Origin: Rhodospirillales bacterium
Lineage (GTDB): Bacteria > Pseudomonadota > Alphaproteobacteria > SP197
Direction of reading: 5' to 3'
DNA length: 64,000 nt
Assembly: GCA_014323865.1 (NCBI GenBank)
Contig: JACONG010000016.1
Coordinates: forward strand, 544,523-608,522
Each line of letters begins with the position of its first letter. Position 1 is the first letter of the stretch. The notes below the pieces were generated by a model. The model was given only the letters and a program-made list of their open reading frames with translations. It had not been told where the DNA came from and did not search any database. Made by a program: the position numbers and the translations under genes. Below, in pieces: positions 15 to 35,401 of this stretch.

Positions 15-864
15 CTAGCAGCAACAAGCCGATCTTGTCATCCCGGGCCAGTGAGCGCCGTGAACGCGAGCTGGAATCACGGCAACGCGCAGCCTCGACG
101 ATTTACCGAATCGGGATTCCGGATCAGCGGCCCGCTGGACCTTACCCGGGATGACACAAGTGATTGGAATCAGAACACAAGCGCAGTGGCCCGCACCGGG
201 CAGCCAGTGCCGCCCTTCATGGAGAACGGCAGGCAGACGAAGAGCAAGTTCTTGCCCACCAGTTGATCGAGATTGCAAAGCTGCTGGACCAGGCAGACAT
301 CCCGGCCGTTGAGCGCGGTATGTGTCGGTCACCACCCCTCGTTGAGATCGTCCATGCCGATCATGTCGTTACAGAAGATGGTGATCTCCTGACTGACCAG
401 CCAATGCACCCCTCGGTCGGCACATAGAGCCGGTTCATGGCGAAGCCTTCCTTGCCCTGGTGCTTGTCGGACCCGGTTCAGCAGACGGTTGCGCCGCCGG
501 GCCCAATCTTGCGTCCCGATTTGTTGGCCGCGGCCTCGAAGTTCTCGATAGTTATTGCTTCGCCGTTCTGCTTGTGGCTGAGATCGAGAAGGCGGCCCGG
601 CAACACGAGCTGCTCCAGCGGGACCTGATCGAGCGGAATGCCATTGGCTGCGCTGTGGCGCGGCACATCGAGATGGGTGCCGCAATGTTCCGGCATCAGG
701 GTCATGCGGCTTTTCATCGTGATCTTGCCTCCGGTGATCTCGGAGAGATAGGCATGATCGTCGAGCTGGAAGAAGGTCACTTGGCCGCCGATGTTCGGCA
801 TGTTGAAATACATCGGATGGCTGAGATCGATGATCTTCTGAATTACTGGCACCATGGTGGTCAC
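15..864 (-). pseudogene. Putative cyclase-family (kynurenine formamidase-like) gene, apparently frame-disrupted. The N-terminal segment 478..864 is intact and the C-terminal parts continue in two other frames.
   Basis: ORF 478..864 begins MTTMVPVIQKIIDLSHP...MPEHCGTHLDVPRH (cyclase H-x-G-T-H-x-D motif). The expected downstream part (…WLVSQEITIFCNDMIGMDD…) is found in a second minus frame (329..685), and the tail is in a third (15..335). Confidence 0.45.
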
Positions 865-886
865 GCCCCTCGTTGTCTCGGGGTGA

Positions 887-1651
887 TCATGCCTGATCGG
901 CGAGCCAGGCCATCACCTCCTCAACCGAACCCGCGACCTGACCCTCTGGCATGGCGGGGCGCGCCACCATGACGACGGGCAGGCCAAGCGACCGGGCGGA
1001 CAGGATCTTCGCTTCGTTCGCCGCGCCGCCGCTCGCCTTGGTGACCAGCGCGCCGATGCCGTTCTCCCGTAACAGCGTCGTCTCGCCTTCGGCCGTGAAG
1101 GGGCCGCGGTCCAGCAGCAGGTCGCCATGCGGCAGCGGCGCGTCCGGTGGCTCGATCATGCGGACGAGAAGACGGATGCCGCGTAGGTCCGAGAAGGCAT
1201 CGAGGTCGCGCCGGCCCAGCGTCACAAATGCGGCCGACGGCGCGAGGTCGCCGAGAGCCCGTGCCGCGTCGGGTGCATCACGCACCGCAATCCACCGGTC
1301 GTCTGCCGTCTCTTGCCACATCGGACGGACGAGCTTGATGCGTGGGACGACGGCTTGCGACGCGGCATCGGCAGCGTGGCTGGCCATGACAGAGGCAAAG
1401 GGATGGGTGGCGTCGATCAGGGCGGCAAAGCGCTCCGCCCGGAGGTAGTCGGCGAGGCCTTCCACCCCGCCGAAACCACCGCGCCTGACCGTACCCGGGA
1501 CCTGCCCGGGGGCGCGTGTGACCCCGGCGAGCGATGTGACGACGTCGATATCGAGTCGCTCCGAGATGAGCCGCTCAGCCAGCGCGACAGCCTCGGTCGT
1601 GCCGCCCAGGATCAGGATCCGCAACATGGAATCACGGTCCGGCCCGGCCAA
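887..1651 (-). CDS. cobK: Precorrin-6A / cobalt-precorrin-6A reductase
   Basis: 254-aa ORF MLRILILGGTTEA…SLGLPVVMVARP, typical CobK/CbiJ length and motifs. It overlaps cbiD by 20 nt. Confidence 0.85.
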   Translation of the reverse strand: MAGPDRDSMLRILILGGTTEAVALAERLISERLDIDVVTSLAGVTRAPGQVPGTVRRGGFGGVEGLADYLRAERFAALIDATHPFASVMASHAADAASQAVVPRIKLVRPMWQETADDRWIAVRDAPDAARALGDLAPSAAFVTLGRRDLDAFSDLRGIRLLVRMIEPPDAPLPHGDLLLDRGPFTAEGETTLLRENGIGALVTKASGGAANEAKILSARSLGLPVVMVARPAMPEGQVAGSVEEVMAWLADQA

Positions 1652-2717
1652 CGATGGCGCCGGCCCGGTCGATCACGATGATGTCGATGACGGTGTCGCC
1701 GGCCAGCGTCGCCAGCGCGCTCTCCCGCGCCCGTCGCGCTACGGCATCGGCGAGGGGAATGTCATGCGCCTGGCTCAGCGCGAGGACGGCTCCGGCACTG
1801 GTGGCGGCAGCCATCTCGCTGACGAGCGTAGCGTCGGCGCCGTTGGCCTCGGCGAGCGCGGCCAAGGCCGCGTGGTTGACCTGGCTGCGCGAGGAGTGAA
1901 GATCCATCGCCCCTTGGCCCAGTTTGGTCAGCTTGCCGAAGCCGCCGGCGATCGTAACACGAGGCACCGGGTGACGGCGCAGGTACTTCAGCATGCCGCC
2001 GGCGAAGTCGCCCATATCGATCAGCGCACCGATCTCCAGCCCGTAGAGCTCCCGCACGGTCACCTCGGATGTGCGCCCGGTTGACACGGCCACATGGTTG
2101 AGTCCGGTGGCGCGCGCAACATCGATGCCGCGGTGGATCGAGTGGATCCAGGCCGAGCAGGAGTAGGGAATGACGACACCGGTCGTGCCCAGGATCGACA
2201 GACCACCCTCAATGCCGAGGCGCGGGTTCCAGGTCGCCTCGGCGAGCGTGGCGCCATCGGTCACGCCCACGGTGATCGCGACGTCGCCTGCGCAGCCGTG
2301 GCGCCTTGCGAGATCGGCGATCGCGGCCGTCATCATCTCGCGCGGTTTCGGATTGATCGCGGGTTCGCCGGGCGGGATCGGCAGACCGGGTTTCGTGACT
2401 GTTCCCACACCCTCGCCGGCCCGGAACGAGATGCCTTCCCCTGTCTCCGTCCACCGGACCGACACCACGATTTCGGCGCCATGGGTGATGTCAGGATCGT
2501 CACCGGCATCCTTGATCACTGAGGCGGTGGCCTCCCCCTCACCGAGCTCCCGGCGAACGAGCGGAAAGGCCGGTTCCTTGCCTCCCGGCAGGGTGATCGT
2601 CACTGGATCGGGGAAGCGTCCGGTCGCCAGTGCCTCGAAGGCGGCGGCCGTAGCGGCCGTCGCACAAGCGCCGGTGGTCCACCCCTTGCGCAGGGGGCCT
2701 TCGGGTTTTGTCGCCAT
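1632..2717 (-). CDS. cbiD: Cobalt-precorrin-5B (C1)-methyltransferase CbiD
   Basis: ORF contains LRKGWTTGACATAAT…ILGTTGVVIPYSCSAW, the CbiD signature. The start was chosen at MATKPEGPLRKGW; the ORF extends to 2744. Confidence 0.85.
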   Translation of the reverse strand: MATKPEGPLRKGWTTGACATAATAAAFEALATGRFPDPVTITLPGGKEPAFPLVRRELGEGEATASVIKDAGDDPDITHGAEIVVSVRWTETGEGISFRAGEGVGTVTKPGLPIPPGEPAINPKPREMMTAAIADLARRHGCAGDVAITVGVTDGATLAEATWNPRLGIEGGLSILGTTGVVIPYSCSAWIHSIHRGIDVARATGLNHVAVSTGRTSEVTVRELYGLEIGALIDMGDFAGGMLKYLRRHPVPRVTIAGGFGKLTKLGQGAMDLHSSRSQVNHAALAALAEANGADATLVSEMAAATSAGAVLALSQAHDIPLADAVARRARESALATLAGDTVIDIIVIDRAGAIVGRAGP

Positions 2718-2794
2718 GACCCTGGTCGCGGATGAGAAGAACAATGTCGCCGATTGTAGGATTTCGACTCTCGAAGGTTTATAGGCTCACCATC

Positions 2795-3649
2795 ATGGAT
2801 CCGTCACGACGCAAATCCCGTCTGCCCAACCTTCCCGACTTCGAGCCGGGCTGGGTCTGGCTTGTGGGCGCAGGCCCGGGTGATCCCGGGCTGATCACGC
2901 TGCTCGCGCATCACGCGCTGGGCGTGGCCGACTGCGTCGTCTACGACGCCCTAGTCGACAAGAATATCCTCGATCTCGCACGCGCCGACGCGGAGCTGAT
3001 CTATGCCGGCAAGCGCGGTGGCAAGCCTTCGCCCAAGCAGCCCGACATCTCCAACCGCCTGATCGCGCTGGCGCGGGGCGGCAAGCGGGTGCTGCGGCTG
3101 AAGGGCGGCGATCCCTTCGTCTTCGGCCGCGGCGGCGAGGAGGCGCTGGCGCTGGTCGGTGCGGGGGTGCCGTTCCGGGTGGTGCCCGGCATCACGGCCG
3201 GCATCGGCGGCCTCGCCTATGCCGGCATCCCGGCGACCCATCGCGACACCAACCACACCGTTACCTTCATCACCGGGCACATGGCCGGCGGCGACATGCC
3301 TGACGGGATCGATTGGCATGCGCTTGCCGCCGGCGGCCAAGCGCTGGTGATTTATATGGCGCTCAAGCATCTGGACGAGATCGCCACCGAGCTTCTCGAG
3401 GGCGGCCTGATGTCGGAGACACCGGTGGCCATCGTCAGTCGCGCGGCGACTGCACACCAGCGGGTCCTGGAGACCACCCTAGGTTCGGCTGTGGCCGACG
3501 TTGCCGAGAGCGGGATCGAGGCACCAGCGATCGTCGCCATGGGCGAGATCGTGCGTCTGCGCAGCGGTCTCGACTGGATGGGCGCCATGGAGGGCCGCCT
3601 GCTCGACTCTGACCCCCTGGGGCGCGACCGGACCCGGCAGGCAGGCTGA
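2795..3649 (+). CDS. cobA: Uroporphyrinogen-III C-methyltransferase (SUMT)
   Basis: VWLVGAGPGDPGLITL…LKGGDPFVFGRGGEE is the classic SUMT motif set. It is divergent from cbiD. The start was chosen at MDPSRRK; the ORF begins at 2732. Confidence 0.85.
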   Translation: MDPSRRKSRLPNLPDFEPGWVWLVGAGPGDPGLITLLAHHALGVADCVVYDALVDKNILDLARADAELIYAGKRGGKPSPKQPDISNRLIALARGGKRVLRLKGGDPFVFGRGGEEALALVGAGVPFRVVPGITAGIGGLAYAGIPATHRDTNHTVTFITGHMAGGDMPDGIDWHALAAGGQALVIYMALKHLDEIATELLEGGLMSETPVAIVSRAATAHQRVLETTLGSAVADVAESGIEAPAIVAMGEIVRLRSGLDWMGAMEGRLLDSDPLGRDRTRQAG

Positions 3650-3653
3650 TTCC

Positions 3654-6161: not shown

Positions 6162-8192
6162 TCAGCGGTCGCCGCCGCCGCTGCGCCGAGTGTCGGGGTC
6201 GGCAGCGCCGGCGCCACCGAGTTCGTCGAGCAGGCCGCCCAGCAGACTGCCGTAGCTGTCTTCGGCCTTCTCCTTCTGGACGTATTCGAGGGGCGCATCG
6301 TCGTAGGGATCGACCAGCGCCAGTGCGGCGTGGCCCCGTTGGGCCTCCATCATGTAGTCGGCCCAGATGCGCGCGGGCAGACCGCCGCCGGTAACCCGAT
6401 CCATGGCCGAACCGTCGTCGTTGCCGACCCAGACGCCGGTGACGACCTGGCGTGTGAAGCCGACGAACCATGCGTCGCGGTGGTCCTGGCTGGTACCGGT
6501 CTTGCCGCCGGCGGGCCAGGGAATTTGCGCGGCACGGCCCGTTCCGCTCACGATGGTGGTTTCGAGCATCGCGGCAAGGCCGGCCTGAACCTCGGGTTTG
6601 ACCAGCCGGGCAAGCGAGACGTCGTCGCGTCGGTAAAGCAGGTCGCCTGAACGGGTCCGGATCTCGCTGATGACATAGGGGCGTGCCGCCAGTCCCTGGT
6701 TGGCGATGGTGGCGTAGGCCGCTGTCAGCTCGAGTGGCGTCACGTCGGTTGTGCCGAGCGCCAGGCTGGGCACGGCCATCATCTCCTGGTCGATGCCGAG
6801 CCTGTGGGCGGCGTCGATCACATCGTTCATGCCCACGGTCCAGGCCACCTCGGCGGCGACCGTGTTGGTCGACGCCGCGAAGGCCTCGGTCAGGGTCATC
6901 GGCCCGTCAAACTCCCCATCGTAGTTCACCGGACTCCAGCCGTCGATCGCAATCGCCCGATCGTCGACAATGTCGGACGGTTCGTAGCCGGCCTCGAGTG
7001 CCGCCAGATAGACGAAGAGCTTGAAGGCCGAGCCTGGCTGGCGTTCGGCCTGGACGACCCGATTGAACTGGGTGGTGCTGTAGTCCGAGCCGCCGACCAT
7101 GGCGAGCACCGCCCCGTCGGGGGCCATGGAAACGATGGCGCCCTCGCGCGCGTCGCCCTCGTCGTCGAGACCAGCCTGCAAGGCCTCCTGTGCGGCGCGC
7201 TGGAGGTCGGGATCGATCGTGGTGACGATGACCAGATCCTGGCGCGCCACGCCGATGTAGTCGGCGGCGCGCGTGACGGTCCAGTCAGCGGCGTAGCGCG
7301 CATCACCACCCGCCGGCCGCTCGCCGACGAGGTTGAGGGGTGCGGCTTTGGCGGCGCGCGCGGTCTCTTCGTCGATCAATCCCGCCTCGACCATATTGTC
7401 GATCACCTCGGCCGACCGAATGCGGGCGGCAGCGGGGTCGGCAGCCGGGTTGTAGCGGGACGGTGCCTTGAAAAGGCCGGCGATCATCGCGGCCTCGGGC
7501 AGGGTCAGATCGCGCGCCGACTTGTCGAAGTAGCGCTTGGCCGCCGCGTCGACGCCATAGGTGCCCGCACCGAGATAGACCCGGTTCAGGTAGATCGCGA
7601 GTATCTCCCCCTTGGTGAAACGGCGTTCGAGCCAGAGCGCCAGAAGAGCCTCCTGGGCCTTGCGCTTGAACGACCGCTCAGGTGTGAGGAAGAGGTTCTT
7701 GGCGACCTGCTGGGTGATCGTGCTGCCGCCTTGGAGCACCCCGCCGGCCTGGATGTTGACCCAAGCCGCACGAGCGATGCCCCGGATGTCGACCCCGATG
7801 TGCTCGAAGTAACGCCGGTCCTCGGTCGCTGTGACGGCCCAGATCAGGGTCTCGGGCAGATCCTCGAAATGGAGGACCTCGCCGTGCAGCTCGCCGTAGG
7901 TCGCAATCACCTGGCCGTCCGCACCGAGCACTGTGACCGAGGGTGCCCGGTCATTGATCAGTTCGGCAGGATCCGGAAGGTCGAGCACATACCAGCCGAT
8001 CAGGCCGGCGAACGCCAGCCCGCCCCAGATAAAGGCGACCGCGCTCCAGCGCAGAAAGACCCGGAACCAGCGTCGGCGCGGTCGGGATGTCGCCTCCTCC
8101 CTATCCTTGGCGCGGGGCGCGGCCTTCGACGTGGCGGGCTTCGTTGCCGCCTTCATGGCTTTCTTCGGCTTGGCCTTCTTGCGCTGCGCCAT
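6162..8192 (-). CDS. mrcA: Penicillin-binding protein 1A (bifunctional transglycosylase/transpeptidase)
   Basis: Lys-rich N-terminus plus TM segment, then the transglycosylase motifs TATEDRRYFEHIGVD and RKAQEALLALWLE, and a transpeptidase domain. The alternative start at 8228 (MTVTAL) is also possible. Confidence 0.85.
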   Translation of the reverse strand: MAQRKKAKPKKAMKAATKPATSKAAPRAKDREEATSRPRRRWFRVFLRWSAVAFIWGGLAFAGLIGWYVLDLPDPAELINDRAPSVTVLGADGQVIATYGELHGEVLHFEDLPETLIWAVTATEDRRYFEHIGVDIRGIARAAWVNIQAGGVLQGGSTITQQVAKNLFLTPERSFKRKAQEALLALWLERRFTKGEILAIYLNRVYLGAGTYGVDAAAKRYFDKSARDLTLPEAAMIAGLFKAPSRYNPAADPAAARIRSAEVIDNMVEAGLIDEETARAAKAAPLNLVGERPAGGDARYAADWTVTRAADYIGVARQDLVIVTTIDPDLQRAAQEALQAGLDDEGDAREGAIVSMAPDGAVLAMVGGSDYSTTQFNRVVQAERQPGSAFKLFVYLAALEAGYEPSDIVDDRAIAIDGWSPVNYDGEFDGPMTLTEAFAASTNTVAAEVAWTVGMNDVIDAAHRLGIDQEMMAVPSLALGTTDVTPLELTAAYATIANQGLAARPYVISEIRTRSGDLLYRRDDVSLARLVKPEVQAGLAAMLETTIVSGTGRAAQIPWPAGGKTGTSQDHRDAWFVGFTRQVVTGVWVGNDDGSAMDRVTGGGLPARIWADYMMEAQRGHAALALVDPYDDAPLEYVQKEKAEDSYGSLLGGLLDELGGAGAADPDTRRSGGGDR

Positions 8193-8355
8193 GTCAGGCC
8201 GCTCCGTGGCGAGCGCTGTCACCGTCATGATAGCCTCGTTCCCGGAACGGCAGTCCAGAGGACATTGTGCCGGTTGAAGGGCGATGCGGGGACAGTCGAG
8301 GGTGACGTCGCAGAACCAGCGCGCGCGCGACACGGCTGTCGTAACGCCGGTCTAC

Positions 8356-9370
8356 ATGGCCATCGTAGCAGTCCTGACGGCGGTTGCCTTGGTCCTGCGC
8401 GCGATGGATGCCGCAGGACCTCTCTCGATCGACGAGGTCTGGAGTCTCTATCTCATCGCTTTCCTGCCGTCGCAGTCCGAAGGTATCATCGGCGCTTTCG
8501 CCTTGCTGATGCACGACAACAGCCATCCGCTTAACACGGCTTGGCTGTGGCTCGTCGGCCTGGTCTCCGGCGGCGCCCCCCGCGACCTGAGCATGGCGCG
8601 GCCTGTCCGGTCGTGGCCGGAACACTGACGGTCCCGCTGGTAGCCGTGCTGGCGCAGCGCCAGCACGGGTTCCCGGCCCTGGTCGTCTGTCTCGTGATCG
8701 CGGTCGGATTGCCTTTCGTGCAAGACGGTTCGGAGGCGCGGGGCTGCGCTGCCGATCTCCGCGTCGCTCGGCGCCGGCCTCGGCCTGTTGCGCCGGATCG
8801 ACTCCGATGCACACCCGGGCGGTGCCTTCTTCACGGCCATGGCGGTGGTAGGATTCCTGTCCCACCTGCTGTTCCTGCCGGTTTTCGCGGCGCTGATCGC
8901 CACAGCATGTGCCTCTGGCCGATTCAGGCTGGCCGGGCATCGTGCAGGTCTGCGCGATGTGGCCTCGCTTGCCGTGCTGTCGGTTGTGGTGGGCGCCGGC
9001 TACATCGGGCGGCTCTTCCTGACGCTGGGGTTCTACGGCAAGAGCGAGCCCGCGGACGCCTTGGCGAGCCTTCTGGCCATGGCCGGGTCGCTGGTCGTTC
9101 CCCTGGAACCCGTTGTCCCCTGGCAGCCCGTCATGGTGCTGTCGCTGGGCGCGGTCTGGGGCATCATCGTGGCGCTGCGCGTGCGCCATCCCGGCACCCT
9201 CTTCGTGCTTCTGGTGGTCTTCCTTGTTCCGGCGGTCCTGATCGGCCTGGGTCTGGGGCGCTATCCGCAGCCCCGCTACTTCCTGATACCGGTCCTGTTC
9301 GCCTTGCTTTCCGCGGGCCGAGCGCGGTGGTTCCTGGCAGCCGGGCTTCCATCGTGTCTCGATCGGCAGG
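8356..9370 (+). pseudogene. Polytopic membrane protein gene split across two reading frames (frame-disrupted or sequencing error)
   Basis: Hydrophobic helical segments continue from frame 1 (8356..8628) to frame 0 (about 8577..8790) and back to frame 1 (8788..9370). The opposite strand reads as a Q/R/D/H-rich shadow. Confidence 0.35.
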
Positions 9371-9483
9371 GGGGCTATCCTCATGCGGGGCTGTCGGGCC
9401 AGACGTGGGTTGTCTTCCGGTCGTCGTGCCGCCGCCTCATGCCATCACGAGGGCGGCATCCGACGACACGGCAGAGCGGGTTG

Positions 9484-13115
<3,632 letters not shown>

Positions 13116-13122
13116 TCCTACT

Positions 13123-14241
13123 TCAGACCCGCATCGGCATCAGGACGTAAAGTGTGCGGTCGTCGCTGGTGTCGTGGACGATGGTGGGCGACACAGCATC
13201 GGCCATCTGGAAGCGGATCTGCTCGCCCTGGAAGTTTTGGGCCATCTCCAGCACGTAACGGGAGTTGAAGCCGATCTCGATCGACGGGCCGGAATAGTTG
13301 ACCGGCAGCTCCTCCTCGCCCGACGTGCTGTCGGGGCTGTTGGCCGACAGCACGAGCCGCTCGGAATCGAGCGCCAGCTTGATTGAGCGCGACTTGTCGG
13401 TCGAGATCGCGGCCATGCGGTCGACCGCCTGCACGAATCTCGTGGCCGACATCTCCAGCATCTTGTCGTTGCTCTGCGGTATAACCCGCTCGTAGTCGGG
13501 GAAGGTGCCGTCGATCAGCTTCGACGTCAGAACGACGGTATCGAAGGCGAAGCGGATCTTGGTGTCGGAGAGCTCGATCTCCACGGCGCTGTCGATCTCG
13601 TCGACCAGCTTCCGCAACTCGCCCACGGCCTTGCGCGGCACGATGATGCTTGGCATGCCGCGCGCACCGTCGGGCTGCTCCGAATCGATACGCGCCAGCC
13701 GGTGGCCGTCGGTCGCGACCGCCCGCAGCATCGGGCCCGAGTCGGCGTCGGTGCCGTGCAGATAGATGCCGTTGAGGTAGTAGCGCGTCTCCTCGGTCGA
13801 GATTGCGAACTTGGTTTTGTCGATCAGGCGGCGCAACTCGGAGGCGGGCAGCGCAAAGCTGTGGCTGAAGTCGCCGCCTGACATCATGGGGAAGTCCTGA
13901 GGCGGCAGGCAGGGCAGGCAGAAGTGGATCCGTTCGCAGGCGATCGACAGTCGGCTCGAATCGCCGGTTGCGTCGAGCGCTACCTCGGATCCCTCGGGAA
14001 GCTTGCGGCAGATGTCGTAGAGAACATGGGCCGCCGCCGTGGTCGCGCCGGTGACCTGGAGAGTGGCAGGCACGGCCTCGACCACCTCAAGATCCATGTC
14101 GGTCGCGGTCAGGCGCAGCGTGCCGTCGGCCGCTTCGAGCCGGACGTTGGAGAGAATCGGGATGGTGTTGCGCCGCTCGACGACGCTCTGCACGTGCGCC
14201 AGCGCCCTCAGGAGAACGGCACGTTCAATAGCCAGCTTCAT
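13123..14241 (-). CDS. dnaN: DNA polymerase III beta sliding clamp
   Basis: MKLAIERAVLLRALAHVQSVVERRNTIPILSNVRL is the canonical DnaN N-terminus; the protein is 372 aa. Confidence 0.95.
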   Translation of the reverse strand: MKLAIERAVLLRALAHVQSVVERRNTIPILSNVRLEAADGTLRLTATDMDLEVVEAVPATLQVTGATTAAAHVLYDICRKLPEGSEVALDATGDSSRLSIACERIHFCLPCLPPQDFPMMSGGDFSHSFALPASELRRLIDKTKFAISTEETRYYLNGIYLHGTDADSGPMLRAVATDGHRLARIDSEQPDGARGMPSIIVPRKAVGELRKLVDEIDSAVEIELSDTKIRFAFDTVVLTSKLIDGTFPDYERVIPQSNDKMLEMSATRFVQAVDRMAAISTDKSRSIKLALDSERLVLSANSPDSTSGEEELPVNYSGPSIEIGFNSRYVLEMAQNFQGEQIRFQMADAVSPTIVHDTSDDRTLYVLMPMRV

Positions 14242-14356
14242 TTAACAAGGTCCGTCGCAGGTGAGTGTTCGACCGGTTTCGGCATGTCCGATTCGGTTGT
14301 GGGACATTACTGTGTACAAAACCAGTCATCACAGGGTTGATCAACTATAGCACAAA

Positions 14357-14384
14357 GTCCCCGGGAACGCCAGTTCCCGGGGAC
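14357..14384 (-). terminator. Perfect 12-bp-stem hairpin downstream of dnaA (likely dnaA terminator)
   Basis: GTCCCCGGGAAC-gcca-GTTCCCGGGGAC, followed on the minus strand by TTTGTG. Confidence 0.5.
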
Positions 14385-14415
14385 TTTGAAGGTGTCCGTA
14401 AGTGCCTGAAAGCAC

Positions 14416-15816
14416 TTAGTTTTCCAGCATGCGTTCGAGAAGTTCCACATCCTCCGCGAAGGCGGGGTCACCGGCCATCAGTTCCTCCACCTTGCGCACC
14501 CCGTGCATGACCGTGGTGTGGTCCCGTCCGCCGAACTTCCGTCCAATCTCGGGCAGGCTGCGGCTGGTCAGGCGTTTGGCGAGATACATGGCGATCTGGC
14601 GCGGCCGGGCGATTGCCCGTTGCTTGCGGCTGGAGACCATATCGGCCATGCGAATGTTGAAGTGTTCGGCGACCTTCTTCTGGATTTCCTCGATCGTCAC
14701 GCGCCGGTCCTGGGCGCGCAGGAGGTCGCGCAGCAAATCCTGGGTGGAATCGAGCGTCACCGGCTGGCCGACCAGCTGCGCGTGCGCCAGAACACGGTTC
14801 AGGGCGCCTTCGAGCTCGCGGACATTCGAGGCGATTTTGTGCGCGAGGAACTCCATGACTCGCTGCGGCACGACCACGTCGGGGAACTGGGCGGCCTTGG
14901 TCTCCAAGATTCCCAGGCGTAGTTCGTAGTCGGCGGGATGGATGTCGGCCACGAGGCCCCAGCCCAGCCGACTCCGCAGGCGTTCCTCAATGCCGTCGAT
15001 GTCCGATGGCGAGCGGTCTCCGGAGATCACGACCTGGCGATTCTGATCGACCAGCGCGTTGAACGTGTGGAAGAACTCCTCCTGGGTTGAATCCTTGCCC
15101 GCGATGAACTGGATGTCGTCGATCATCAGCACGTCGACGGCGCGGAACTGATCCTTGAAAGCCATTGTGTCCTTGTAGCGAAGGGCACGGATGAACTTGT
15201 ACATGAATTTCTCGGCCGACATGTAGAGAACCCGCCGGCCCGGCTTCTTGGCCCGAATATGCCACGCGATCGCGTGCATTAGGTGGGTCTTGCCCAGGCC
15301 GACGCCGCCATAGAGGAAGAGTGGGTTGAAGGTGACCGAATCGGCTGCAGCGACACGCTGGGCCGCGGCATGGGCGAACTCGTTGGTCTTGCCGACGACG
15401 AAGTTTTCGAAGGTGAAGCGCGGATCGAGCAAAGCGGCAATCTTCTCGGCCTCGGCCACCGCATCAAGCATGTTGCCGTCATGGCGGATCATGTCGAGAT
15501 CGCGACGCACCGGCGTCACCTCCCGCCGCGGCGCACGGCGCTCAGGCCTGCCCACCTTGATGGTGATCCCACTGATGGCGTCGTTTTCACCGCACCACAG
15601 ATCGTGCAGGCGTTCGCCGCAGCGCGACATAACCCAGTCCTTCATGTTGCCGCTGGGCACACGCATGACGACCTCGTTGCCCGAGACTCCGTCAAGCGAA
15701 AGCGGGCGCAACCATGTCTTGAATGCTGCTTCGCCCAGTTCAGCGCGAAGGCGACCCCTGACCCGCTTCCACTGGTCTTCCACGTCCTGGTTGATCTTCA
15801 ACTGTTCAGACGCCAT
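14416..15816 (-). CDS. dnaA: Chromosomal replication initiator DnaA
   Basis: The AAA+ motifs GGVGLGKTHLMHAIA and the C-terminal HTH (RKFGGRDHTTVMHG) are present. Start chosen at MASEQLK, which has a GAGGAG RBS; the ORF extends to 15918. Confidence 0.95.
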   Translation of the reverse strand: MASEQLKINQDVEDQWKRVRGRLRAELGEAAFKTWLRPLSLDGVSGNEVVMRVPSGNMKDWVMSRCGERLHDLWCGENDAISGITIKVGRPERRAPRREVTPVRRDLDMIRHDGNMLDAVAEAEKIAALLDPRFTFENFVVGKTNEFAHAAAQRVAAADSVTFNPLFLYGGVGLGKTHLMHAIAWHIRAKKPGRRVLYMSAEKFMYKFIRALRYKDTMAFKDQFRAVDVLMIDDIQFIAGKDSTQEEFFHTFNALVDQNRQVVISGDRSPSDIDGIEERLRSRLGWGLVADIHPADYELRLGILETKAAQFPDVVVPQRVMEFLAHKIASNVRELEGALNRVLAHAQLVGQPVTLDSTQDLLRDLLRAQDRRVTIEEIQKKVAEHFNIRMADMVSSRKQRAIARPRQIAMYLAKRLTSRSLPEIGRKFGGRDHTTVMHGVRKVEELMAGDPAFAEDVELLERMLEN

Positions 15817-20390: not shown

Positions 20391-22612
<2,222 letters not shown>

Positions 22613-24354: not shown

Positions 24355-24672
24355 ATGCTCGCGCTGCGGCCCAACTGCCAATACTGCGACAAGGACATGC
24401 CGCCCGACGTTCCTGATGCCATGATCTGCACCTAACCAGTCACCTTCTGCGCGGACTGCATCGAGGCGCATCTTCACAACGTCTGCCCGAACTGCGGCGG
24501 CCGTTTCGCGCTTTGCCCGACGATGGCGCCGCGCGAGGGCGTGTCGCTCCGGCATCAGCCGGCTTCGACCGAGCGTGTGCACCTCGGATATCCGAAGGAT
24601 GACATCGCCGCCTTCACTGCGCCCACCGGCACGTCCCGCCAGCCGAGCGTTGAGCGCGGCTTGCAAGGGTGA
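24355..24672 (+). pseudogene. DUF1272-family Cys-rich small protein gene with an in-frame TAA at 24433–24435
   Basis: MLALRPNCQYCDKDMPPDVPDAMICT-[TAA]-PVTFCADCIEAHLHNVCPNCGG… The stop replaces a residue between conserved Cys pairs. Confidence 0.5.
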
Positions 24673-27326: not shown

Positions 27327-28334
27327 ATGCAAGCGCACTTTGAGAACGTCACCACCATTGATATCGCCGCGTTGTTCGACGACACCTCGGCCGTTCGACC
27401 CGCGATTGCAGTCGAGGTCGCGCGGGCCCTTGCCGAGCATGGCGCGTTTCTCGCTACGGGCTTTCCCGGCGGCGACGACATCGACAGGCGTATGGAGAAA
27501 CTGCTCGCCTTCTTCACCCTGAATCGCGCCGGCAAGATGAGCTGTGCCACGCGGCGCGACGATCCCGCCAGTCCCAATGTCAACCGCGGCTACATCGCGC
27601 CGCCCGAGGACAAAGGCTGGGCCTACAACGAGTTCTTCGACATCGGCCCCGACCCTGTGCCGTCGGTGCCGTCCGGCCTGCCTGCACGCGAGCTGCTCGA
27701 AGAGCCGACCCGCTGGCCGACGACAGAGCCCTATTCCGGTTGGGTCACCGAGTCGCGCGCGCTGTTCAACGATATGGTCGGCCTGTGCCGTGGTGTGCTG
27801 GGTGGCATGATGGAAGGTCTCGGTCTCGATCCTTCGCCGGCGTTGGCGCTGTGCGAAGGCAACAACGCCACCCTGCGGCTGCTGAACTATCCGGAAGTAC
27901 CCGACCATTTCGTGGCCGGCGAGGGCGAGGTCGTGCCTGAGCAGTTCGACGAACTGGGTCGTCGTATCCTGACCCAGCGCCATCTCGACATGAACCTTGC
28001 CTCGCTGCTGTGGCAGGACCCCGTGGGCGGGCTGCAGATGCAGGCGCCCGACGGCATCTGGCGCGAGGTACCTGTCGATCAGGGCGGTATCTCGGTGCAC
28101 AACGGCGTCATGATCGACCGCCTGACCGGTGGTCGGGTGCCGGGCACACCACACCGCGTGGCCGGACCCACGGGCAACCGCCGCTCGGTCGGCATGTTCC
28201 ACGAGCCCGATTTCTCGGCCCTGATGGACTCCGAAGAAAGCCGCCCGCCCGAGGTCTATGCCCGTCAGCTGCTGCGCCGCTACAAGGCCTACCCCGACAT
28301 GGCCCCCTTCATCCCCGACGAGATGGCTGCATGA
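27327..28334 (+). CDS. 2OG-Fe(II) oxygenase superfamily protein, paralog of 26148..27155
   Basis: Same architecture as the upstream paralog (TQRHLDMNLASLLWQD … GTPHRVA) and the same RBS context (GGAGGAACGGACATG). Confidence 0.8.
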   Translation: MQAHFENVTTIDIAALFDDTSAVRPAIAVEVARALAEHGAFLATGFPGGDDIDRRMEKLLAFFTLNRAGKMSCATRRDDPASPNVNRGYIAPPEDKGWAYNEFFDIGPDPVPSVPSGLPARELLEEPTRWPTTEPYSGWVTESRALFNDMVGLCRGVLGGMMEGLGLDPSPALALCEGNNATLRLLNYPEVPDHFVAGEGEVVPEQFDELGRRILTQRHLDMNLASLLWQDPVGGLQMQAPDGIWREVPVDQGGISVHNGVMIDRLTGGRVPGTPHRVAGPTGNRRSVGMFHEPDFSALMDSEESRPPEVYARQLLRRYKAYPDMAPFIPDEMAA

Positions 28335-28657
28335 CGATGACGTACCATGACACCACAATCCTCGACATCGCCCCGCTCTTCTCGAGCGGCGGCACCGCCT
28401 CGCTCGACCGGCAGATCGCCGAGGTGCTCGAAACCGAAGCGAGCTTCGTCGCCACGGGGTTCCCCGGCTGCGAGGGGCACGACAAGCGCGTCTCCGATGT
28501 TCTGCGCTTCTTCGACATGCCGCTCAAGGCGAAGATGACCTGCACTGTCCAGCAGCACCACGCGGCCCACAGCAACATCTATCGCGGCTGTCTGCTATCG
28601 TTGTTCCGCGACAGCAGGGCCATCGGCGTCGTTGCGATGGCGGCCGAAGCCGCCTGA
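28331..28657 (+). pseudogene. Truncated third 2OG-Fe(II) oxygenase paralog (N-terminal about 95 aa only)
   Basis: Its ATG overlaps the previous TGA (ATGA). MTMTYHDTTILDIAPLF…FVATGFPGCEGHDKRV parallels the N-termini of the two paralogs, then diverges after NIYRG and stops. The next gene starts at 28671. Confidence 0.55.
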
Positions 28658-28670
28658 GGCCGTGGCCGCG

Positions 28671-29291
28671 ATGAGTCTGGACGATGTCCTCCGCGACCTG
28701 AACGCGCTGCCCCGGAAGGCCGACGGCACCGTCTACGTGTCCGCGTTCAAGCCGCTTGCGCGGCGCCATCGCAACGACCATGCGCTCGCCTTGGCCCTGT
28801 GGGACACCGGCACGGATGTTGCGCGCCAGCTCGCCGTCCGCATCGCCGATCCCAGCCTGGCCGATGACCGCCTGCTTGAGACCTGGGTTAACGACCTGGA
28901 CGAATGGAGTCTGACGGATGCCTTCACGGCCCATGTCGTCAGGCCGTCGGCACTGGCGATCGAGAAATCCCATGCCTGGGCGCAGGCCGAACCGACCTTC
29001 GTGCGCCGGGCCGGGTTCGCGACCGTGGCGCAGTTGGCTTGGCTGCGGACAAGCGCGACCGAGGACATGGTTTTCCTCGCCTTTCTTCCCCGGATCGAAG
29101 CCGCCGCCACCGATGAGCGCTTCTATGTGAAGAAGGCCGTCAACTGGGCGTTGCGCGACATCGCCAAACGCAACGATGCGCTGTGTGAGCACGCCACGGC
29201 GCTTGCCATGTGCCTTATGGCCTCCGACGACACGACCGCCCGCTGGGTCGGGCGGCACCGCTGCAAGGAGTTCCTCGTCGATCCCGCTTAG
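28671..29291 (+). CDS. DNA alkylation repair enzyme family protein (AlkD/HEAT-like)
   Basis: …ALALALWDTG…FVRRAGFATVAQLAWL…ERFYVKKAVNWALRDIAKR matches the DNA_alkylation family pattern. Confidence 0.75.
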   Translation: MSLDDVLRDLNALPRKADGTVYVSAFKPLARRHRNDHALALALWDTGTDVARQLAVRIADPSLADDRLLETWVNDLDEWSLTDAFTAHVVRPSALAIEKSHAWAQAEPTFVRRAGFATVAQLAWLRTSATEDMVFLAFLPRIEAAATDERFYVKKAVNWALRDIAKRNDALCEHATALAMCLMASDDTTARWVGRHRCKEFLVDPA

Positions 29292-29775
29292 AAGAAGACG
29301 AACGAGACCGAGATTGTCGATAGCCTGCCGCAGATCGGGACGCCGAAGGTCGACCGCATCTGTCTGGCCGAACGCGACAACCAGGCTCTCGACCGCCGAA
29401 AGGCCGAAGACGCTGATGATTCCGATGCGCCTGACGGCTTACCCAACGATCTCAGCCGTCACATTGCCGCTGCGCCGTGCAAGGTGTTGGAGCGCGACGC
29501 GGCCTCGCCGCAAGCCCCTACATCGACGTAGGTGGCGATTTGCTGTCCGCACCGGTCTCTGCAATCCACATCGAGAAGGTGTTCGGTATGGTGCTCGATC
29601 CCGCCGATCTGCTCGACGACATTCCATTGGCCGAGATCGTTGAGGCGATCGCCGAGTCGGCACGATCCGGCCCATGACGATCAAGCTTGGTCTTTTCCCG
29701 CAGCTTTTCGTTGATTGTACACTCATTCAACAACCTGTCCCGCAGGAGGTGCGGCGATGAACGAGATCCGCACGA

Positions 29776-30964
29776 TTGACACGGAAAAACCCCTTTGCCG
29801 CCGTCGATGATTTGGTACGCCAAGGCATGGAGGCGCCGGTTGCCGATGCCAGGGGCCTGCCCAATGAAGCCTTCACCGATCCCGTGTTCCTGGAGCTCGA
29901 ACGCAAGCACCTGTTTGCACGAAGCTGGGTCTTCGCCTGCCCGCAGAGCGACGTTCCGAATCCGGGCGACGTGAAATGTCTCGAGGTTGCGGGGCGTCAT
30001 CTCTTCATGACCCGCGACCGCAAGGGTGCCGTCAGGATTTTCTTCAACGTCTGCTCCCATCGCGGCGCCAGGCTTGTGATCGAGGACCAGACGAAAGCCA
30101 CCGTCCTGACCTGCCCTACCACGATTGGTCCTTCGGGCTGGACGGCACGCTGCGCGGACGGCCGCACTATCACGCCCCGCTGGAGCATGACACCGTCGGC
30201 AGCAAAGCTGATCGCGACTGCCTCTTCGAGGTGCGCCCGGCAATCTGGCACGGCTGGGTCTTCGTCAACATCGACGGTCAGGCGCAACCGTTCGAGGACT
30301 ACATGGCGCCCGCCATGAAGGCCTATGTGGACTGGGACCTTGGCGCGCTCAAGCTGGTGCACTACCAGCCCTTCGACTTCCACGCGGCTTGGAAGCTCGT
30401 GATCGAGACCTTCTGCGACACCTACCACGTCTTTATGGTGGCATCCCGATCTTCATGCCGCGCAGACGCCGGCCGACTGTTTCACGATGCGGCCCGATAG
30501 TGCGCACATGTTCAACCACATCGTCATCGGCGCCGAAGGCGGTGGTCTGACGCCGGTTGAGGAACAACTTCTACCGGATATCCCGGGCGTCTCCGCCGAT
30601 CAGGAGTCGCTCTCACCCTTCTGCAACATCTTCCCCAACGTCACGATGGCGCTGTTCCGTTCGGCCGTGACCTTACTTCCAATACGAGCCGGTCGCCGTC
30701 GACAAGACCATCATGCGTGTCTGGTTCTACGTTGCGCCCGAAACCGCCGAGGACGAGGCCTACGCGCTGGGCCGCGAGGAGCTCTATGCCAATTGGGTAC
30801 AGCTCAACGCCGACGGTGCCGGGATCTGCCACCGTCTGCAGGAAGGCCCCAGCTGTGACGCCTACGACGGCGGCAGCTTCGTTCCCTACTGGGACGAGGG
30901 CAGGCTGCACTTTCACCGCCAGATCGCGGATGCGCTGCGCGGGGAAGGGTTGTTTGTGCGGTGA
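29776..30964 (+). pseudogene. Rieske non-heme iron oxygenase alpha subunit, at least 3 frameshifts
   Basis: The first Rieske motif CSHRG (CxH) is in frame A and the second, CPYHDW, only in frame C. The frame change is in a C-run (tgccctacc). The catalytic-domain pieces (ETFCDTYHVFMV…, then YFQYEPVAVDKTIMRVWFYVAPE…GEGLFVR) are in two further frames. Confidence 0.65.
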
Positions 30965-31020
30965 GACTGTTGCCGGGCTCGTGAGCCTTCAAAACGCGGT
31001 GACGGTACGCGCCTGGGAAA

Positions 31021-31067
31021 ACAAACAAAAAAGGCCGCCCCGGACATCCGGGGACGGCTTTGGATTT
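31021..31067. terminator. Bidirectional rho-independent terminator between the convergent Rieske pseudogene and ghrA-like gene
   Basis: AAACAAACAAAAAAG-GCCGCCCCGGA-cat-CCGGGGACGGC-TTTGGATTT. Confidence 0.6.
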
Positions 31068-31082
31068 CAGATCTTCGCGACA

Positions 31083-32072: not shown

Positions 32073-32175
32073 GCGTTTGCTGATTGCCTTGCTGCGAGGG
32101 AGGCCCGGGAGCTTCGGGCGCAGGGTCTTTAGCAAACACGATCACACGAAACAACGCAACGCGGCCTCCTTCCGG

Positions 32176-32649
32176 ATGCATGGCACGATTGCGCTTTTTC
32201 TCGTCGTGCTGATCGGGTGCGAAGCGGCCCAGGACCCGCTGCCTCTGCCCCGATTCGTGTCGCTCAAGGAAGACAAGGTCTTCATGCGCGCGGGCCCCGG
32301 CACGACCTACCCGATCAACTGGGTCTTCGTGCGCGAAGGCATGCCGATCGAGATCCTCCGTGAATATGAGGAATGGCGTTACGTGCGCGACCACGATGGC
32401 GTCGAAGGCTGGATGCACCGGATTATGCTGTCAGGCTCGCGCTCGGTGATCGTTGCGAGCCAGGTGGTGGCGACTGCCTACGACACGCCGAGGCGCGACG
32501 GCGCGCCGGTGTTCCGCGCGGACCCCGGGGTCCAGGGGGGGCTGATCTCGTGTGACGGCTCATGGTGCCGGATCGAGATCGGCGACGTGAAGGGCTGGAT
32601 GCTGATGGACGATCTCTGGGGTGTCTACCCGGAGGACGGGCAGGGCTGA
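32176..32649 (+). CDS. Secreted SH3b-domain protein
   Basis: A signal peptide (MHGTIALFLVVLIGCEA) followed by two SH3-like repeats (…VSLKEDKVFMRAGPGTTYPINWVFVREGMPIEIL… and …VFRADPGVQGGLISCDGSWCRIE…). Confidence 0.7.
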   Translation: MHGTIALFLVVLIGCEAAQDPLPLPRFVSLKEDKVFMRAGPGTTYPINWVFVREGMPIEILREYEEWRYVRDHDGVEGWMHRIMLSGSRSVIVASQVVATAYDTPRRDGAPVFRADPGVQGGLISCDGSWCRIEIGDVKGWMLMDDLWGVYPEDGQG

Positions 32650-32960
32650 TGGGGTTCACTCCCGGGGAGCGTCGGCTTGTCCCCGATCATGTCGGACGCC
32701 TTCTCGGCCATCATGATGACGGGAGTGTTCAGATTGGCCGAGACGATCGAGGGGATGATCGACGCGTCAACCACGCGCAGGCCTGTGACGCCATGAACAC
32801 GGTAGGCCGGATCAATCACCGCATCGGGACTCTGACACATGCGGCAGGCACCCGCGGGGTGATAGCCGCTCTCGGCATATCGCTGGACCCAAGCGTCGAC
32901 CTCGGCGTCCGTCCTGACATCGGGGCCCGGGGTCAGCTCGCGCCCGCGAACTGGTGTATG
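32625..32960 (-). pseudogene. C-terminal about 110-aa fragment of a GMC-family oxidoreductase (choline dehydrogenase-like)
   Basis: …SGYHPAGACRMCQSPDAVIDPAYRVHGVTGLRVVDASIIPSIVSANLNTPVIMMAEKASDMI is the GMC C-terminal signature. The coding sequence stops abruptly at the repeat-rich junction (about 32960). Confidence 0.65.
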
Positions 32961-32970
32961 TGGGGGGCGG

Positions 32971-33148
32971 GAAGTCTTTGGGAATCGTGACTATGCGTGA
33001 TGAGGCGTGACTATGCGTGATGGATCAAGGGGTTAGGGGTGGATTCGGGGTTGCTGAAAAGTCTTTCAGAATCGTCCGTTGAAACGGCCTTGCAGGGTCG
33101 TTTTCCGGGCGTTTTCTAGGGTCTGGAACGCCGGGATTTTCCGGGCGT
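32971..33148. repeat. Repeat-rich junction: tandem 19–20-bp repeat (CGTGACTATGCGTGATG ×2), direct repeats of TTTTCCGGGCGTTTT, and an imperfect repeat of GAAGTCTTTGGGAATCGT
   Basis: Seen directly at 32986–33022, 33092–33108/33130–33144, and 32971–32991/33056–33070. Confidence 0.5.
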
Positions 33149-33221
33149 TTTGGGGGGTCGCGAGATGGCGTCGAAACAGAGGCCGTCGGGGTGCGCCGGG
33201 CGGCGGTCGCTCGGAGCGGGT

Positions 33222-33734
33222 TCAGGCGAGGCAGAACCTGACGATCGGGCCTTCGACGGTGCGTCGTCCGGTTCCGTCTGGTCCGCTTTCGTCTGTCAGG
33301 GTGTATTCGGCGTTGGGGGGCGGGTGGCCGATCTTGTCGCCGTTCTTGTCGATCAGATGCGCGGGCATCCGCGCCTTGTGTCCGTCGGGGAAGGTGAACA
33401 GGGGCGAGAGGTGTTCGAGTTCGGTCTCGCCTCCGTCGAAGACCGGGGGCAGCTCGATGGCGATGCCCTGGTAGATCTCGCTCGGTGTATGGACGCCAGC
33501 CCATATGAAACCCAGCAGCCAGATGAGGTCGCCTGGGCTGTGGGCCGGGTCCTGGAGCCAGACCTGGATCTCGTCCTTGGCGAGCCATCCCGGCTCGCGT
33601 CCGTCGACCTGCTCGTTGAGCCATGGCACATCGCCGTGATCGCCGTCGAAGGTTCCGGCGACATCGTCCCACAGGATGGTCCGCATGGCGCGCCCGAACC
33701 GCCGGTCGGGCAGCATGATGGTGTGGATAGCCAT
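33222..33734 (-). CDS. Hypothetical protein (170 aa), unrecognised family
   Basis: Open frame with protein-like composition (…VPWLNEQVDGREPGWLAKDEIQVWLQDPAHSPGDLIWLLGFIWAGVHTPSEIYQGIAIELPPVFDGGETELEHL…). The opposite strand is an R-rich shadow. Confidence 0.4.
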   Translation of the reverse strand: MAIHTIMLPDRRFGRAMRTILWDDVAGTFDGDHGDVPWLNEQVDGREPGWLAKDEIQVWLQDPAHSPGDLIWLLGFIWAGVHTPSEIYQGIAIELPPVFDGGETELEHLSPLFTFPDGHKARMPAHLIDKNGDKIGHPPPNAEYTLTDESGPDGTGRRTVEGPIVRFCLA

Positions 33735-33848
33735 GTCAGGGATTGTAGTGGAACAGGACGCCGAAGACCAGATCCATTAGTTCGGGATCGTCGCGGGCGA
33801 GCGAGGCGATGTCGAGAATTTCTGTGGTGCCATCGGGCCGCGTCCTGG

Positions 33849-34764
33849 TTATCTGGTGGAATGTGATCTGGAACGCGCGCGTGACGACCTCAAGGGCGGG
33901 GCGGTCGCCATATTGCGGTGCACCGCCTGTATCAGCGGCAGGCGTTCGGGCACGTTCTCGAAACCGAGCTGGGCATCGCAGAGCGCGGCTGCAAGCGACG
34001 GCGCGACCATCAGGTTGGCCTCGACCGCCGCACGCTCCTCACCCTCGCTCCAGGAGACCGCATGCGCCTGCGAGTCCTGGGTCTTGCTGTCCTCGACATC
34101 GAACAGCCGGGTCGCGAGGCCTGCCCACGCACAGGCCCAGGCGACCCTGGTGCCTATGACGCCGTCGCCGACGATCCCGATCGGTCGGGCATGGTCGAAC
34201 GCCGGCAGGTCTGTCGATACAGGCTCAGTCCTCGAACTGGCTTTCGCGCCAGCGGATGGCAGCACTGAGGCCCTTCTCCGAACGGACCTTCTCGAACTGC
34301 TTGTACTGTTCGGGTTCGGCCGTATCAGGCCCTCGAGCGAGATCGTGGTGGCGCGGCGGGCATAACGCATGGTCTCTTCCTCGAGCTTGTCGTCGGGGAA
34401 GGCCTTGTTGACCGTGCCCATCGCCAGCGCCTCTTCGGCGGTGATGAGATCACCGGTGTAGAGCAGTTCACGGGTGCGCTTCAGGCCGATGATCCAGGGC
34501 ATGATCATCCCCGGCGGTGCAGTCGAGAAGCGGCTCTCCGGCTCGCCGAACATCGCGCTCTCGCCGGCGTAGGTGATGCAGCACATCATCGCGAGTTCGC
34601 AGGAACCGGTTATACTCGTTGCCCCACTCGTACTTCAGGTCGTCGCCCGCGCCGAAGTGGTCGCCGTCGTGCGTCAGGATGATGACCGAGACGTCGTCAT
34701 TCTCGTCGAGCTCGCACAGCACGCCGGAAAGTTCGGCCATAAATGGCGGGTTCATGGAATTCAT
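33849..34764 (-). pseudogene. Remnants of a FadB-like enoyl-CoA hydratase / 3-hydroxyacyl-CoA dehydrogenase gene
   Basis: ECH N-terminus (34764→: …VIILTHDGDHFGAGDDLK) and ECH C-terminus in a second frame (ITYAGESAMFGEPESRF…LLYTGDLITAEEALAMGTVNKAFP), with roughly 60 aa missing between them. HADH N-terminus (IGIVGDGVIGTRVAWACAWAGL…ENVPERLPLIQAV) ends at a stop at 33849. Confidence 0.55.
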
Positions 34765-34849
34765 CTTGGCGGCCCGGTTGATCGTGACCGTGGCGATAGC
34801 TGGTCGTCGGTCTGGATGAAGCCGCTGTCGATCAAACCCGATTGCGAGA

Positions 34850-35401
34850 TCAGCGTGATGTCGCCGGGGTCGATGCTGTTGCGTGTGCCGACCAAGGCGA
34901 TCTGGGTCTTTTTTCGTCGCGGTTGACGAAGCCCGAGCCGTTGCCTCCGCAGACCTGGAGTCCGGCCGCGCGCACCTTGGTCTGCAAGCGATCGAGCAGC
35001 AGTGGGTCGGTGTCGCCCTTGAGGTAGCAGGAGGCGAAGATCGTCACCGCCTTCATTCTGTTGGCGATCGCGTCGTCGAGCACGCCCTCAAGGCGCGCAT
35101 TCGCGACGTTCAGCATGGCGTACTCGACCGGCGTGCCGATCGCTGCGATGTCCGGGGAACACAGCCGGTCGTCGATCGCGTCGTCACGCGGGTTCACGAG
35201 GTGAACATCACCGTCGTAGCCGATGTCGCCGACACCGCGACAGGACTTCCAACCGAAGCTGTACTCCCTCGGCGACGCGCCGACGACCGCCACCGAGGTC
35301 AGGTTCAAAAGAATCCTGAGACGATGCTGACCACGGGAAAAGCTGTCTGACAAATGACTGGCGGAACTGTAGAGCGGATTGTACCGTCGGCAATCCCCCA
35401 T
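34850..35401 (-). pseudogene. N-terminal CoA-binding-domain fragment of an ADP-forming acyl-CoA synthetase
   Basis: LLNLTSVAVVGASPREYSFGWKSCRGV…VHLVNPRDDAIDD…AVTIFASCYLKGDTD…AGLQVCGGNGSGFVNRDEK, then the coding sequence decays and stops after about 180 aa; the expected full length is over 450 aa. Confidence 0.5.

Follow-up and report, generated by a model that had tools for sequence, protein, structure and literature searches.

Does a cluster of broken genes in a metagenome-assembled genome (MAG) reflect the decay of those genes in the living organism, or the shortcomings of sequencing and assembly, and if the decay is genuine, what does it say about the lifestyle of the lineage? The question is raised by a 64-kb stretch of DNA (hereafter 'the window') from a MAG labelled Rhodospirillales bacterium (assembly GCA_014323865.1, contig JACONG010000016.1, positions 544,523 to 608,522), in which an initial annotation based on the sequence alone had listed ten disrupted accessory genes among cleanly reading essential ones. 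The window, which has a GC (guanine plus cytosine) content of 65% and includes the gyrB-recF-dnaN-dnaA origin cluster, spans the dnaA/origin region of a marine alphaproteobacterium not yet in culture, and its proteins have been deposited at NCBI under the same MAG label (MBC6441036.1, MBC6441044.1 and MBC6441072.1) on a contig of 905,541 bp. The nearest genomes all belong to uncultured marine alphaproteobacteria, namely A_MB180, Rhodospirillaceae SI072_bin42 from Saanich Inlet, a Caspian MAG, the Tara-derived GCA_002722885.1 and Tara scaffolds, and their housekeeping proteins are ~77-94% identical to those of the window. The decay is very probably biological in origin and not a sequencing artefact: accessory genes have been struck and housekeeping genes have been spared.

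The analysis covered the window and ~17 kb of its flanks, ~81 kb in total. Pfam domains were mapped onto every coding-like stop-to-stop segment, adjacent segments being assigned to different pseudo-proteins in order to expose split genes, and the syntenic loci of relatives (marine Rhodospirillales MAGs and Tara Oceans scaffolds) were collected for comparison. These loci carry labels, of which L002 denotes MAG A_MB180 (a long-read assembly and GTDB species representative), L003 SI072_bin42, L019 the Caspian MAG casp40-mb.99 and L037 a Tara scaffold. Lesions were located with a purpose-written local aligner of protein against DNA, which tolerates frameshifts and in-frame stops and gives every event its position in the window. 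The negative controls were intact genes, and the positive control for error was the long-read MAG L002.

Twelve loci in the window are decayed, each of them aligned to an intact homologue. Every one of the ten genes listed earlier proved to be a pseudogene or a stub; they amount to eleven loci once a presumed 'FadB' is split in two, and the twelfth is a transporter remnant of the major facilitator superfamily (MFS) that lies beyond the range covered by the initial annotation. Together they carry ~20 frameshifts and at least six nonsense substitutions; some have lost stretches of 30-105 codons internally, and others have been cut down to 15-35% of full length. Set against these are 49 intact genes spanning 48 kb, all with a full-length single-frame alignment to relatives or a complete Pfam architecture and none with a lesion; the set includes cobK, cbiD, cobA, cobB, mrcA, gyrB, recF, dnaN, dnaA, rpsT, fpg, ubiE, coaBC, dut, thiF, dsrE, two 2-oxoglutarate (2OG) oxygenases, an alkylation-repair gene, D-glycerate dehydrogenase, ribF, ileS, lspA, pgi, mutL, purD, xseA and lpxL. 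The gyrB-recF-dnaN-dnaA block (9484-15816, minus strand) is full length and in one frame, 79-92% identical to L037, with dnaA 94% identical to that of L003, and full-length single-frame matches to a relative were likewise obtained across 41922-57683, a block that contains an S-methyltransferase gene, maoC, ribF, ileS, lspA, M16 peptidase genes, pgi, mutL, rsmD and rluB, among others. The clean reading previously noted for gyrB, recF, dnaN, dnaA, mrcA, ileS and mutL thus holds at full length and in one frame against relatives, frameshifts are not equally frequent in the essential genes of the window, and no pseudogene was found from 37 kb to 64 kb. In numbers, the 9.6 kb of pseudogene sequence hold ~26 lesions, against zero in the 48 kb of intact genes (P ~4e-10 under a uniform rate), a value that is illustrative and not an independent test since the two classes are defined by the lesions themselves.

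That the genes remain functional because their lesions are read through, by an alternative genetic code or by programmed frameshifting, has a negligible probability: both stops in the cyclase gene are TGA codons at tryptophan positions, but TGA, TAG and TAA are all found as in-frame lesions, no in-frame TGA occurs in any of the 49 intact genes when read with translation table 11, the frameshifts go in both directions without a common motif, and several genes are missing most of their length.

Sequencing, consensus or assembly errors superimposed on genes that are intact in the cell are a more conventional explanation, and the source being a MAG invites it. What such errors look like can be seen in the related long-read MAG L002, the essential dnaA gene of which (L002:874-2301) contains six frameshifts at 91% identity with neither stops nor deletions. 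These are typical uncorrected long-read errors, and nothing alike occurs in the window; an Illumina assembly of the A_MB180 species (L044) matches L002 at 99.94% identity across the 10 kb that both cover. Four of the 20 frameshifts in the window do lie in runs of 4-6 identical bases, but the other 16 are outside runs of four or more, and of the 59 homopolymer runs of at least five bases only two have a frameshift associated with them. Indel-prone sequencing is no source of nonsense substitutions, of truncations or of deletions that span 30-105 codons, and 48 kb of interspersed intact genes is free of lesions. In addition, the segments 3123-24241 and 34756-57605 (21,119 and 22,850 bp) are 100% identical, lesions included, to contigs Ga0189853_1000004 and Ga0189853_1000018 of the Joint Genome Institute (JGI) dataset 3300017829, where the gene caller split the same genes. 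The window represents another assembly, of higher contiguity, of the organism in JGI 3300017829. Taken together, an origin of the lesions in error is very unlikely.

A further line of evidence comes from the divergence of the broken genes. Synonymous sites are saturated at this distance, and the comparison was made on protein identity to one reference species, with the window set beside two other relatives. Most intact genes of the window fall ~0-5 points below the relatives (rpsT.76/.76/.76, EamA.74/.75, 2Hacid.90/.92, coaBC.83/.86/.88), whereas the deficit of the broken genes amounts to 10-21 points (ubiB.69 vs.87/.79, Rieske.66 vs.82/.77, ECH.77 vs.90, ACS.48 vs.69). This extra amino-acid divergence suggests a period of unconstrained evolution and is not expected of genes that are intact in the cell and merely misread. 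The view that at least part of the decay is real is thereby strengthened by stops, long deletions, truncations and divergence alike, while the localised sequencing error that had been entertained beside it is contradicted by the clustering of the lesions, their types, the divergence and the second assembly.

Several observations weigh against a wholly biological reading, or against extending it. Short homopolymers are mildly enriched for frameshifts (4/20 vs a background of 6.5%, p ~0.04), positions being exact only to a few bases, an enrichment that natural slippage also predicts. The JGI and NCBI assemblies probably share one library, and their identity hence excludes assembler artefacts and not systematic read errors. 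The separation of broken and intact genes by divergence is imperfect, because three intact genes are also 7-11 points lower (2OG-A.62 vs.73, dut.70 vs.79, thiF.85 vs.92), and the identity comparison presumes that the window lineage is roughly equidistant from the reference. Finally, the density of pseudogenes may be local, as ~17 kb of flanks add only one remnant.

The genomic context of the decayed genes is well preserved. The gene order coaBC-dut-DUF1272-thiF-dsrE-2OG-2OG-...-Rieske-2Hacid-SH3-3HCDH-ECH-ACS-...-EamA is found in four assemblies of one species and also in L003, L004, L019, L037 and L043, and intact counterparts occupy syntenic positions for ubiB, katG, DUF1272, 2OG-B, the Rieske oxygenase, 3-hydroxyacyl-CoA dehydrogenase (3HCDH), enoyl-CoA hydratase (ECH), acyl-CoA synthetase (ACS) and the MFS transporter. 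This comparison covers nine of the twelve decayed genes and leaves out the cyclase, the GMC oxidoreductase and the membrane protein; a CbiJ-based scan for synteny of the left flank returned only unrelated loci, 43-56% identical, among the matches listed, and the cyclase was checked instead against homologues from a protein search.

Viewed against these relatives the casualties can be arranged by degree of decay. The Rieske oxygenase and katG are full length but frameshifted; ubiB, ECH and the membrane protein have accumulated many lesions together with internal deletions; 2OG-B, GMC, 3HCDH, ACS and MFS are reduced to short stubs; and at the far end YDMC, a TPR/guanylate-cyclase protein and a histidine phosphatase, all ancestral genes present in relatives, have left no detectable trace in the window. 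The pattern is that of ordinary reductive evolution with pseudogenisation of accessory genes, a process which is well known and has not been described before in this lineage. The mechanism that we infer combines relaxed selection with neutral decay and a bias towards deletion: once selection had slackened on a number of non-essential genes, disabling point mutations and small indels would gather gene by gene, by drift and at the neutral rate, and the bacterial deletion bias would remove the remains piecemeal. Such a process would leave all stages of decay side by side, with the interleaved housekeeping genes kept by purifying selection.

One of the dead genes is katG, which encodes a catalase-peroxidase. 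The copy in the window (20397-22541, minus strand) contains four frameshifts, TAG codons at 21481-21483 and 21469-21471 and a deletion of 10 residues. It is 75% identical to the intact KatG of L004, its Pfam peroxidase matches are broken into three fragments in two frames, and the JGI gene calls represent it as pieces of 127 and 315 residues. The katG label that had been placed on a 723-residue open reading frame (ORF) at 6162-8333 has to be withdrawn, this ORF being mrcA. Among the relatives, katG of SI072_bin42 (L003:7678-9830) has three frameshifts, a TAA and a deletion of 20 residues, that of the Caspian casp40-mb.99 (L019:7611-9941, minus strand) has two TAA stops, and that of the Tara scaffold (L037:2940-3620, minus strand) is truncated to residues 517-743. 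The gene is intact only in A_MB180 and L004; of the five related lineages, three hence have a dead or truncated copy, as do four of six with the window counted, and at least two of the affected lineages were sampled from marine water (Saanich Inlet and Tara Oceans). Since the lesions are unshared between lineages, the inactivations look independent, and loss in three of five relatives makes it a common event in the clade and no mark of the lifestyle of the window organism. Two arrangements of katG exist in the clade, one on the coaBC strand with a LysR neighbour and one on the opposite strand without it; the window is of the latter type, and no trace of the LysR regulator was detectable in it. 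An interpretation of the window gene as an inversion of the L002 katG (60% identity at the protein level) was rejected, the true orthologue being that of the second arrangement (L004 and L019, 75% identity).

To the left of katG lies the remnant of ubiB (18586-20215, plus strand), with four frameshifts, a TGA at 19563-19565 and ~96 codons deleted. The gene is intact in L002, L003, L004, L019 and L037. Its ubiquinone-pathway partners have been retained, ubiE being intact in the window and UbiD encoded ~9-10 kb to its right, and the loss of ubiB with both ubiD and ubiE kept is unusual. In the middle of the pseudogene, at 19065-19463, there are ~380 nt of unrelated sequence that is neither a repeat nor an insertion sequence (IS) element and for which no homologue was detectable. 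A tblastx comparison of this insert and of the gyrB-mrcA, 28.6-29.7 kb and 32.6-33.9 kb spacers with the loci of relatives produced GC-rich noise only, the MFS remnant excepted.

As several of the broken genes are oxygen-linked, a loss of O2-dependent or aerobic metabolism had been suggested as the common denominator. This idea does not hold up: seven of the twelve casualties (the cyclase, the membrane protein, DUF1272, ECH, 3HCDH, ACS and MFS) are unconnected with O2; two paralogues of the 2OG-Fe(II) oxygenase as well as ubiE and UbiD are intact; and katG has been inactivated or cut short in three of the five related lineages as well.

Pseudogene-rich reductive genomes are known from Mycobacterium leprae, Sodalis glossinidius and young symbionts of insects and marine invertebrates. 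The window resembles these in its multiply lesioned accessory and catabolic genes among intact housekeeping genes, in the adjacency of all stages of decay and in a gene order that is kept relative to intact relatives. It is therefore natural to ask whether the decay follows a recent shift to a host-restricted or bottlenecked lifestyle in which drift kills accessory genes, as in early symbiont genome reduction. The sheer load would fit: twelve of ~61 loci in the window (~20%) and 12 of 36 in its first 37 kb (33%) are pseudogenes, compared with a reported 3-5% of genes in marine roseobacters (bioRxiv 10.1101/2021.01.15.426902), and 26% of these first 37 kb is dead sequence. Old and strongly diverged pseudogenes have been retained. 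DnaN, IleS and CoaBC of the organism were each found on one contig only, when the proteins of its relatives recur in Tara, ENA and Logan data, and the matching contigs being the 4th and the 18th in the JGI numbering suggests dominance in that sample, if the names follow length. However, the window differs from genomes of the M. leprae and Sodalis type in lacking IS proliferation, AT drift and loss of repair genes: no IS elements or repeat families were found in the 64 kb beyond chance matches of 30-47 nt, there is no shift towards AT (GC 65% vs 62-63% in relatives), and mutL, fpg, recF, xseA and an alkylation-repair gene in the window are all intact, as is nth just outside it. Moreover, the closest relatives come from marine and brackish water samples (Tara Oceans and Saanich Inlet among them) and are not known to be host-associated, and these water-sampled lineages carry pseudogenes too, namely katG and the TPR-cyclase gene in L003, katG and DUF1272 in L037 (Tara) and katG in L019, even though the window lineage has by far the most at these loci. 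We regard a host-restricted or bottlenecked lifestyle as a possible but rather unlikely cause.

The alternative is that the losses were selectively favoured in a free-living planktonic lineage, through streamlining or in the manner of the Black Queen hypothesis, in whose terms a lineage can rely on the community for leaky functions such as the removal of H2O2 by KatG and can dispose of catabolic genes that it does not use. In its favour, katG is the founding example of that hypothesis (Morris, Lenski and Zinser 2012, PMC3315703), it has been inactivated by unshared lesions in the window, L003 and L019 and truncated in L037, and relatives derive from the size-fractionated seawater of Tara Oceans. 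The likeness to the Black Queen case is that katG is dead or deleted in four of six related lineages by lineage-specific lesions. Prochlorococcus and Pelagibacter lack the gene altogether, whereas the clade described here retains decaying copies, such that the loss seems to have been caught in progress. On the other hand, katG is only one of the twelve casualties in the window, and most of the others (ubiB, ECH, ACS, DUF1272 and the membrane protein) are not leaky public goods. Classic streamlined genomes are pseudogene-poor and coding-dense, at odds with the 26% of dead sequence in the first 37 kb. Another parallel may be sought in the CHUG lineage of Roseobacter, marine alphaproteobacteria that lose genes without the high coding density or the paucity of pseudogenes of classic streamlining (bioRxiv 10.1101/2021.01.15.426902); there, however, the pseudogene ratio is ~3.9% of genes, near that of sister groups, and the local ratio in the window, which belongs to a different order and has no isolate, is much higher. 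Selection and drift are indistinguishable with these data, and we regard selectively favoured loss as possible, if doubtful. With similar caution, we tentatively propose that the window lineage and its sisters form a planktonic marine alphaproteobacterial clade in the midst of genome reduction, in which old pseudogenes persist, katG has been lost independently in at least four lineages and the window lineage is the most advanced.

The remaining casualties differ in extent and in their surroundings. Between gyrB and mrcA lies the pseudogene of an orphan polytopic membrane protein (8302-9480, plus strand) with at least three frameshifts (~8566, 8609 and 8760) and an in-frame deletion of ~105 residues; judging from an alignment to P0141 and from frame translations, the intact protein would measure ~480-520 residues. 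The family is very rare, with three cluster representatives among 1.84 billion in an exhaustive HMMER search; its members have no Pfam domain and share the conserved motif PHAGLSGQTW at the C-terminus. Only 10 nt separate gyrB from mrcA in the Tara relative L037, which means that the gene either entered the window lineage by insertion or has disappeared from that of L037.

At the left end, a cyclase-family (PF04199) pseudogene (176-855, minus strand) is disrupted by TGA codons at 478-480 and 329-331 and by a frameshift near 410. A frameshift-aware alignment to the homologues P0137 and P0139 places both stops at tryptophan positions (TGG to TGA), and the Pfam match covers positions 1-95 of 142. 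The first 125 residues (window 478-855) have been catalogued by NCBI as a normal 'cyclase family protein' (P0136), and truncated pseudogene products are thus already present in protein databases. Some 2.3 kb to the left of window position 1, a 55-residue EamA fragment between dapB and DUF2244 (L129:4828-4995) is probably the relic of a further gene; of its surroundings, dnaK, dnaJ, dapB and nth are intact.

The DUF1272 pseudogene (24355-24650, plus strand) has a TAA at 24433-24435 and a frameshift near 24625. The absence of a GNAT gene between DUF1272 and thiF was considered as a window-specific deletion and rejected, as L004 and L019 lack the gene as well. Further right, an N-terminal stub at 28319-28588 (plus strand) preserves only residues 19-108 of 348 of a 2OG-Fe(II) oxygenase; this is the second ancestral copy (2OG-B), counted as the third paralogue in the initial annotation. 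It is flanked by an additional 2OG-Fe(II) oxygenase paralogue (27327-28334), ~40% identical to both ancestral copies, and by a DNA-alkylation-repair gene (28632-29291), where relatives carry YDMC and the TPR/guanylate-cyclase gene. Both are intact, pointing to gain or replacement at this locus besides loss. The Rieske ring-hydroxylating oxygenase alpha-subunit pseudogene (29665-30961, plus strand) is full length with three frameshifts (~30115, 30441 and 30675), its Rieske and Ring_hydroxyl_A Pfam matches being spread over three frames. A truncated Rieske gene in L043, suggested by a gene call of 220 residues, was rejected because the L043 DNA shows the gene to be intact.

Of the GMC oxidoreductase, a C-terminal stub is left (32628-32990, minus strand) that comprises the last ~105 of ~580 residues, with a Pfam GMC_oxred_C match over 50-139 of 139 and a PDB match to residues 459-562 of a 580-residue choline dehydrogenase. 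Next to it, both JGI contigs stop 573 bp apart (33057-33630), in or beside an intact ORF of 170 residues (33222-33734, minus strand) that has a GC content at third codon positions of 0.82 and is without a Pfam match; the GC skew in the 32-34 kb interval is unusually high at +0.137. These contig breaks near 33 kb may represent a population-level structural variant or a drop in coverage.

A fatty-acid module follows on the minus strand. The 3HCDH remnant (33894-34208) retains residues 12-116 of 306, and L044-L047 have the intact gene, at 299-306 residues. The ECH remnant (34231-34797) has two frameshifts, and L043-L047 have the intact gene, at 268 residues; the internal loss of ~130 nt ascribed to it earlier is real and is made up of two deletions, of 36 and 30 codons, and not one. 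The relatives encode ECH (268 residues) and 3HCDH (~300 residues) as two adjacent separate genes, and the label 'FadB' does not apply. The third member is the stub of an ADP-forming ACS (34794-35329) with residues 3-178 of 693 and one or two frameshifts; of the Pfam domains only CoA_binding_2 is left, and the intact copies of relatives are 693-807 residues long. The MFS remnant (36452-36877, plus strand) corresponds to ~141 of 410 residues, and L043 has an intact MFS_1 gene of 410 residues beside EamA.

Beyond the twelve loci, ~560 nt between two LysR genes (39692-40255) hold only ORF calls of 95 and 34 residues, and as L048:3509-5463 contains three genes there (YjiS-like, 254 residues and 288 residues), this is probably another deletion scar. 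At 58000-60000 the GC content falls to 61% over genes for a GNAT acetyltransferase, a PEMT-like methyltransferase and an HNH endonuclease (58946-59872), a patch that may be a small horizontal acquisition. Scans of the 64 kb for tRNA genes and Rfam families found nothing.

With the broken genes being biological, annotation pipelines should flag them as pseudogenes, and metabolic inference for this organism should omit KatG, UbiB, the Rieske oxygenase and the fatty-acid module made up of ECH, 3HCDH and ACS. At orthologous sites, the locus and those of its relatives display several stages of gene death, from which one could learn how fast marine bacteria lose genes. Their main added value lies in the replicated and still-readable loss of katG in sister lineages and in the loss of ubiB with ubiD and ubiE kept. 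If the clade is indeed in the midst of reduction, it would offer a natural experiment with replicates, in which Black Queen or streamlining loss could be timed and drift weighed against selection.

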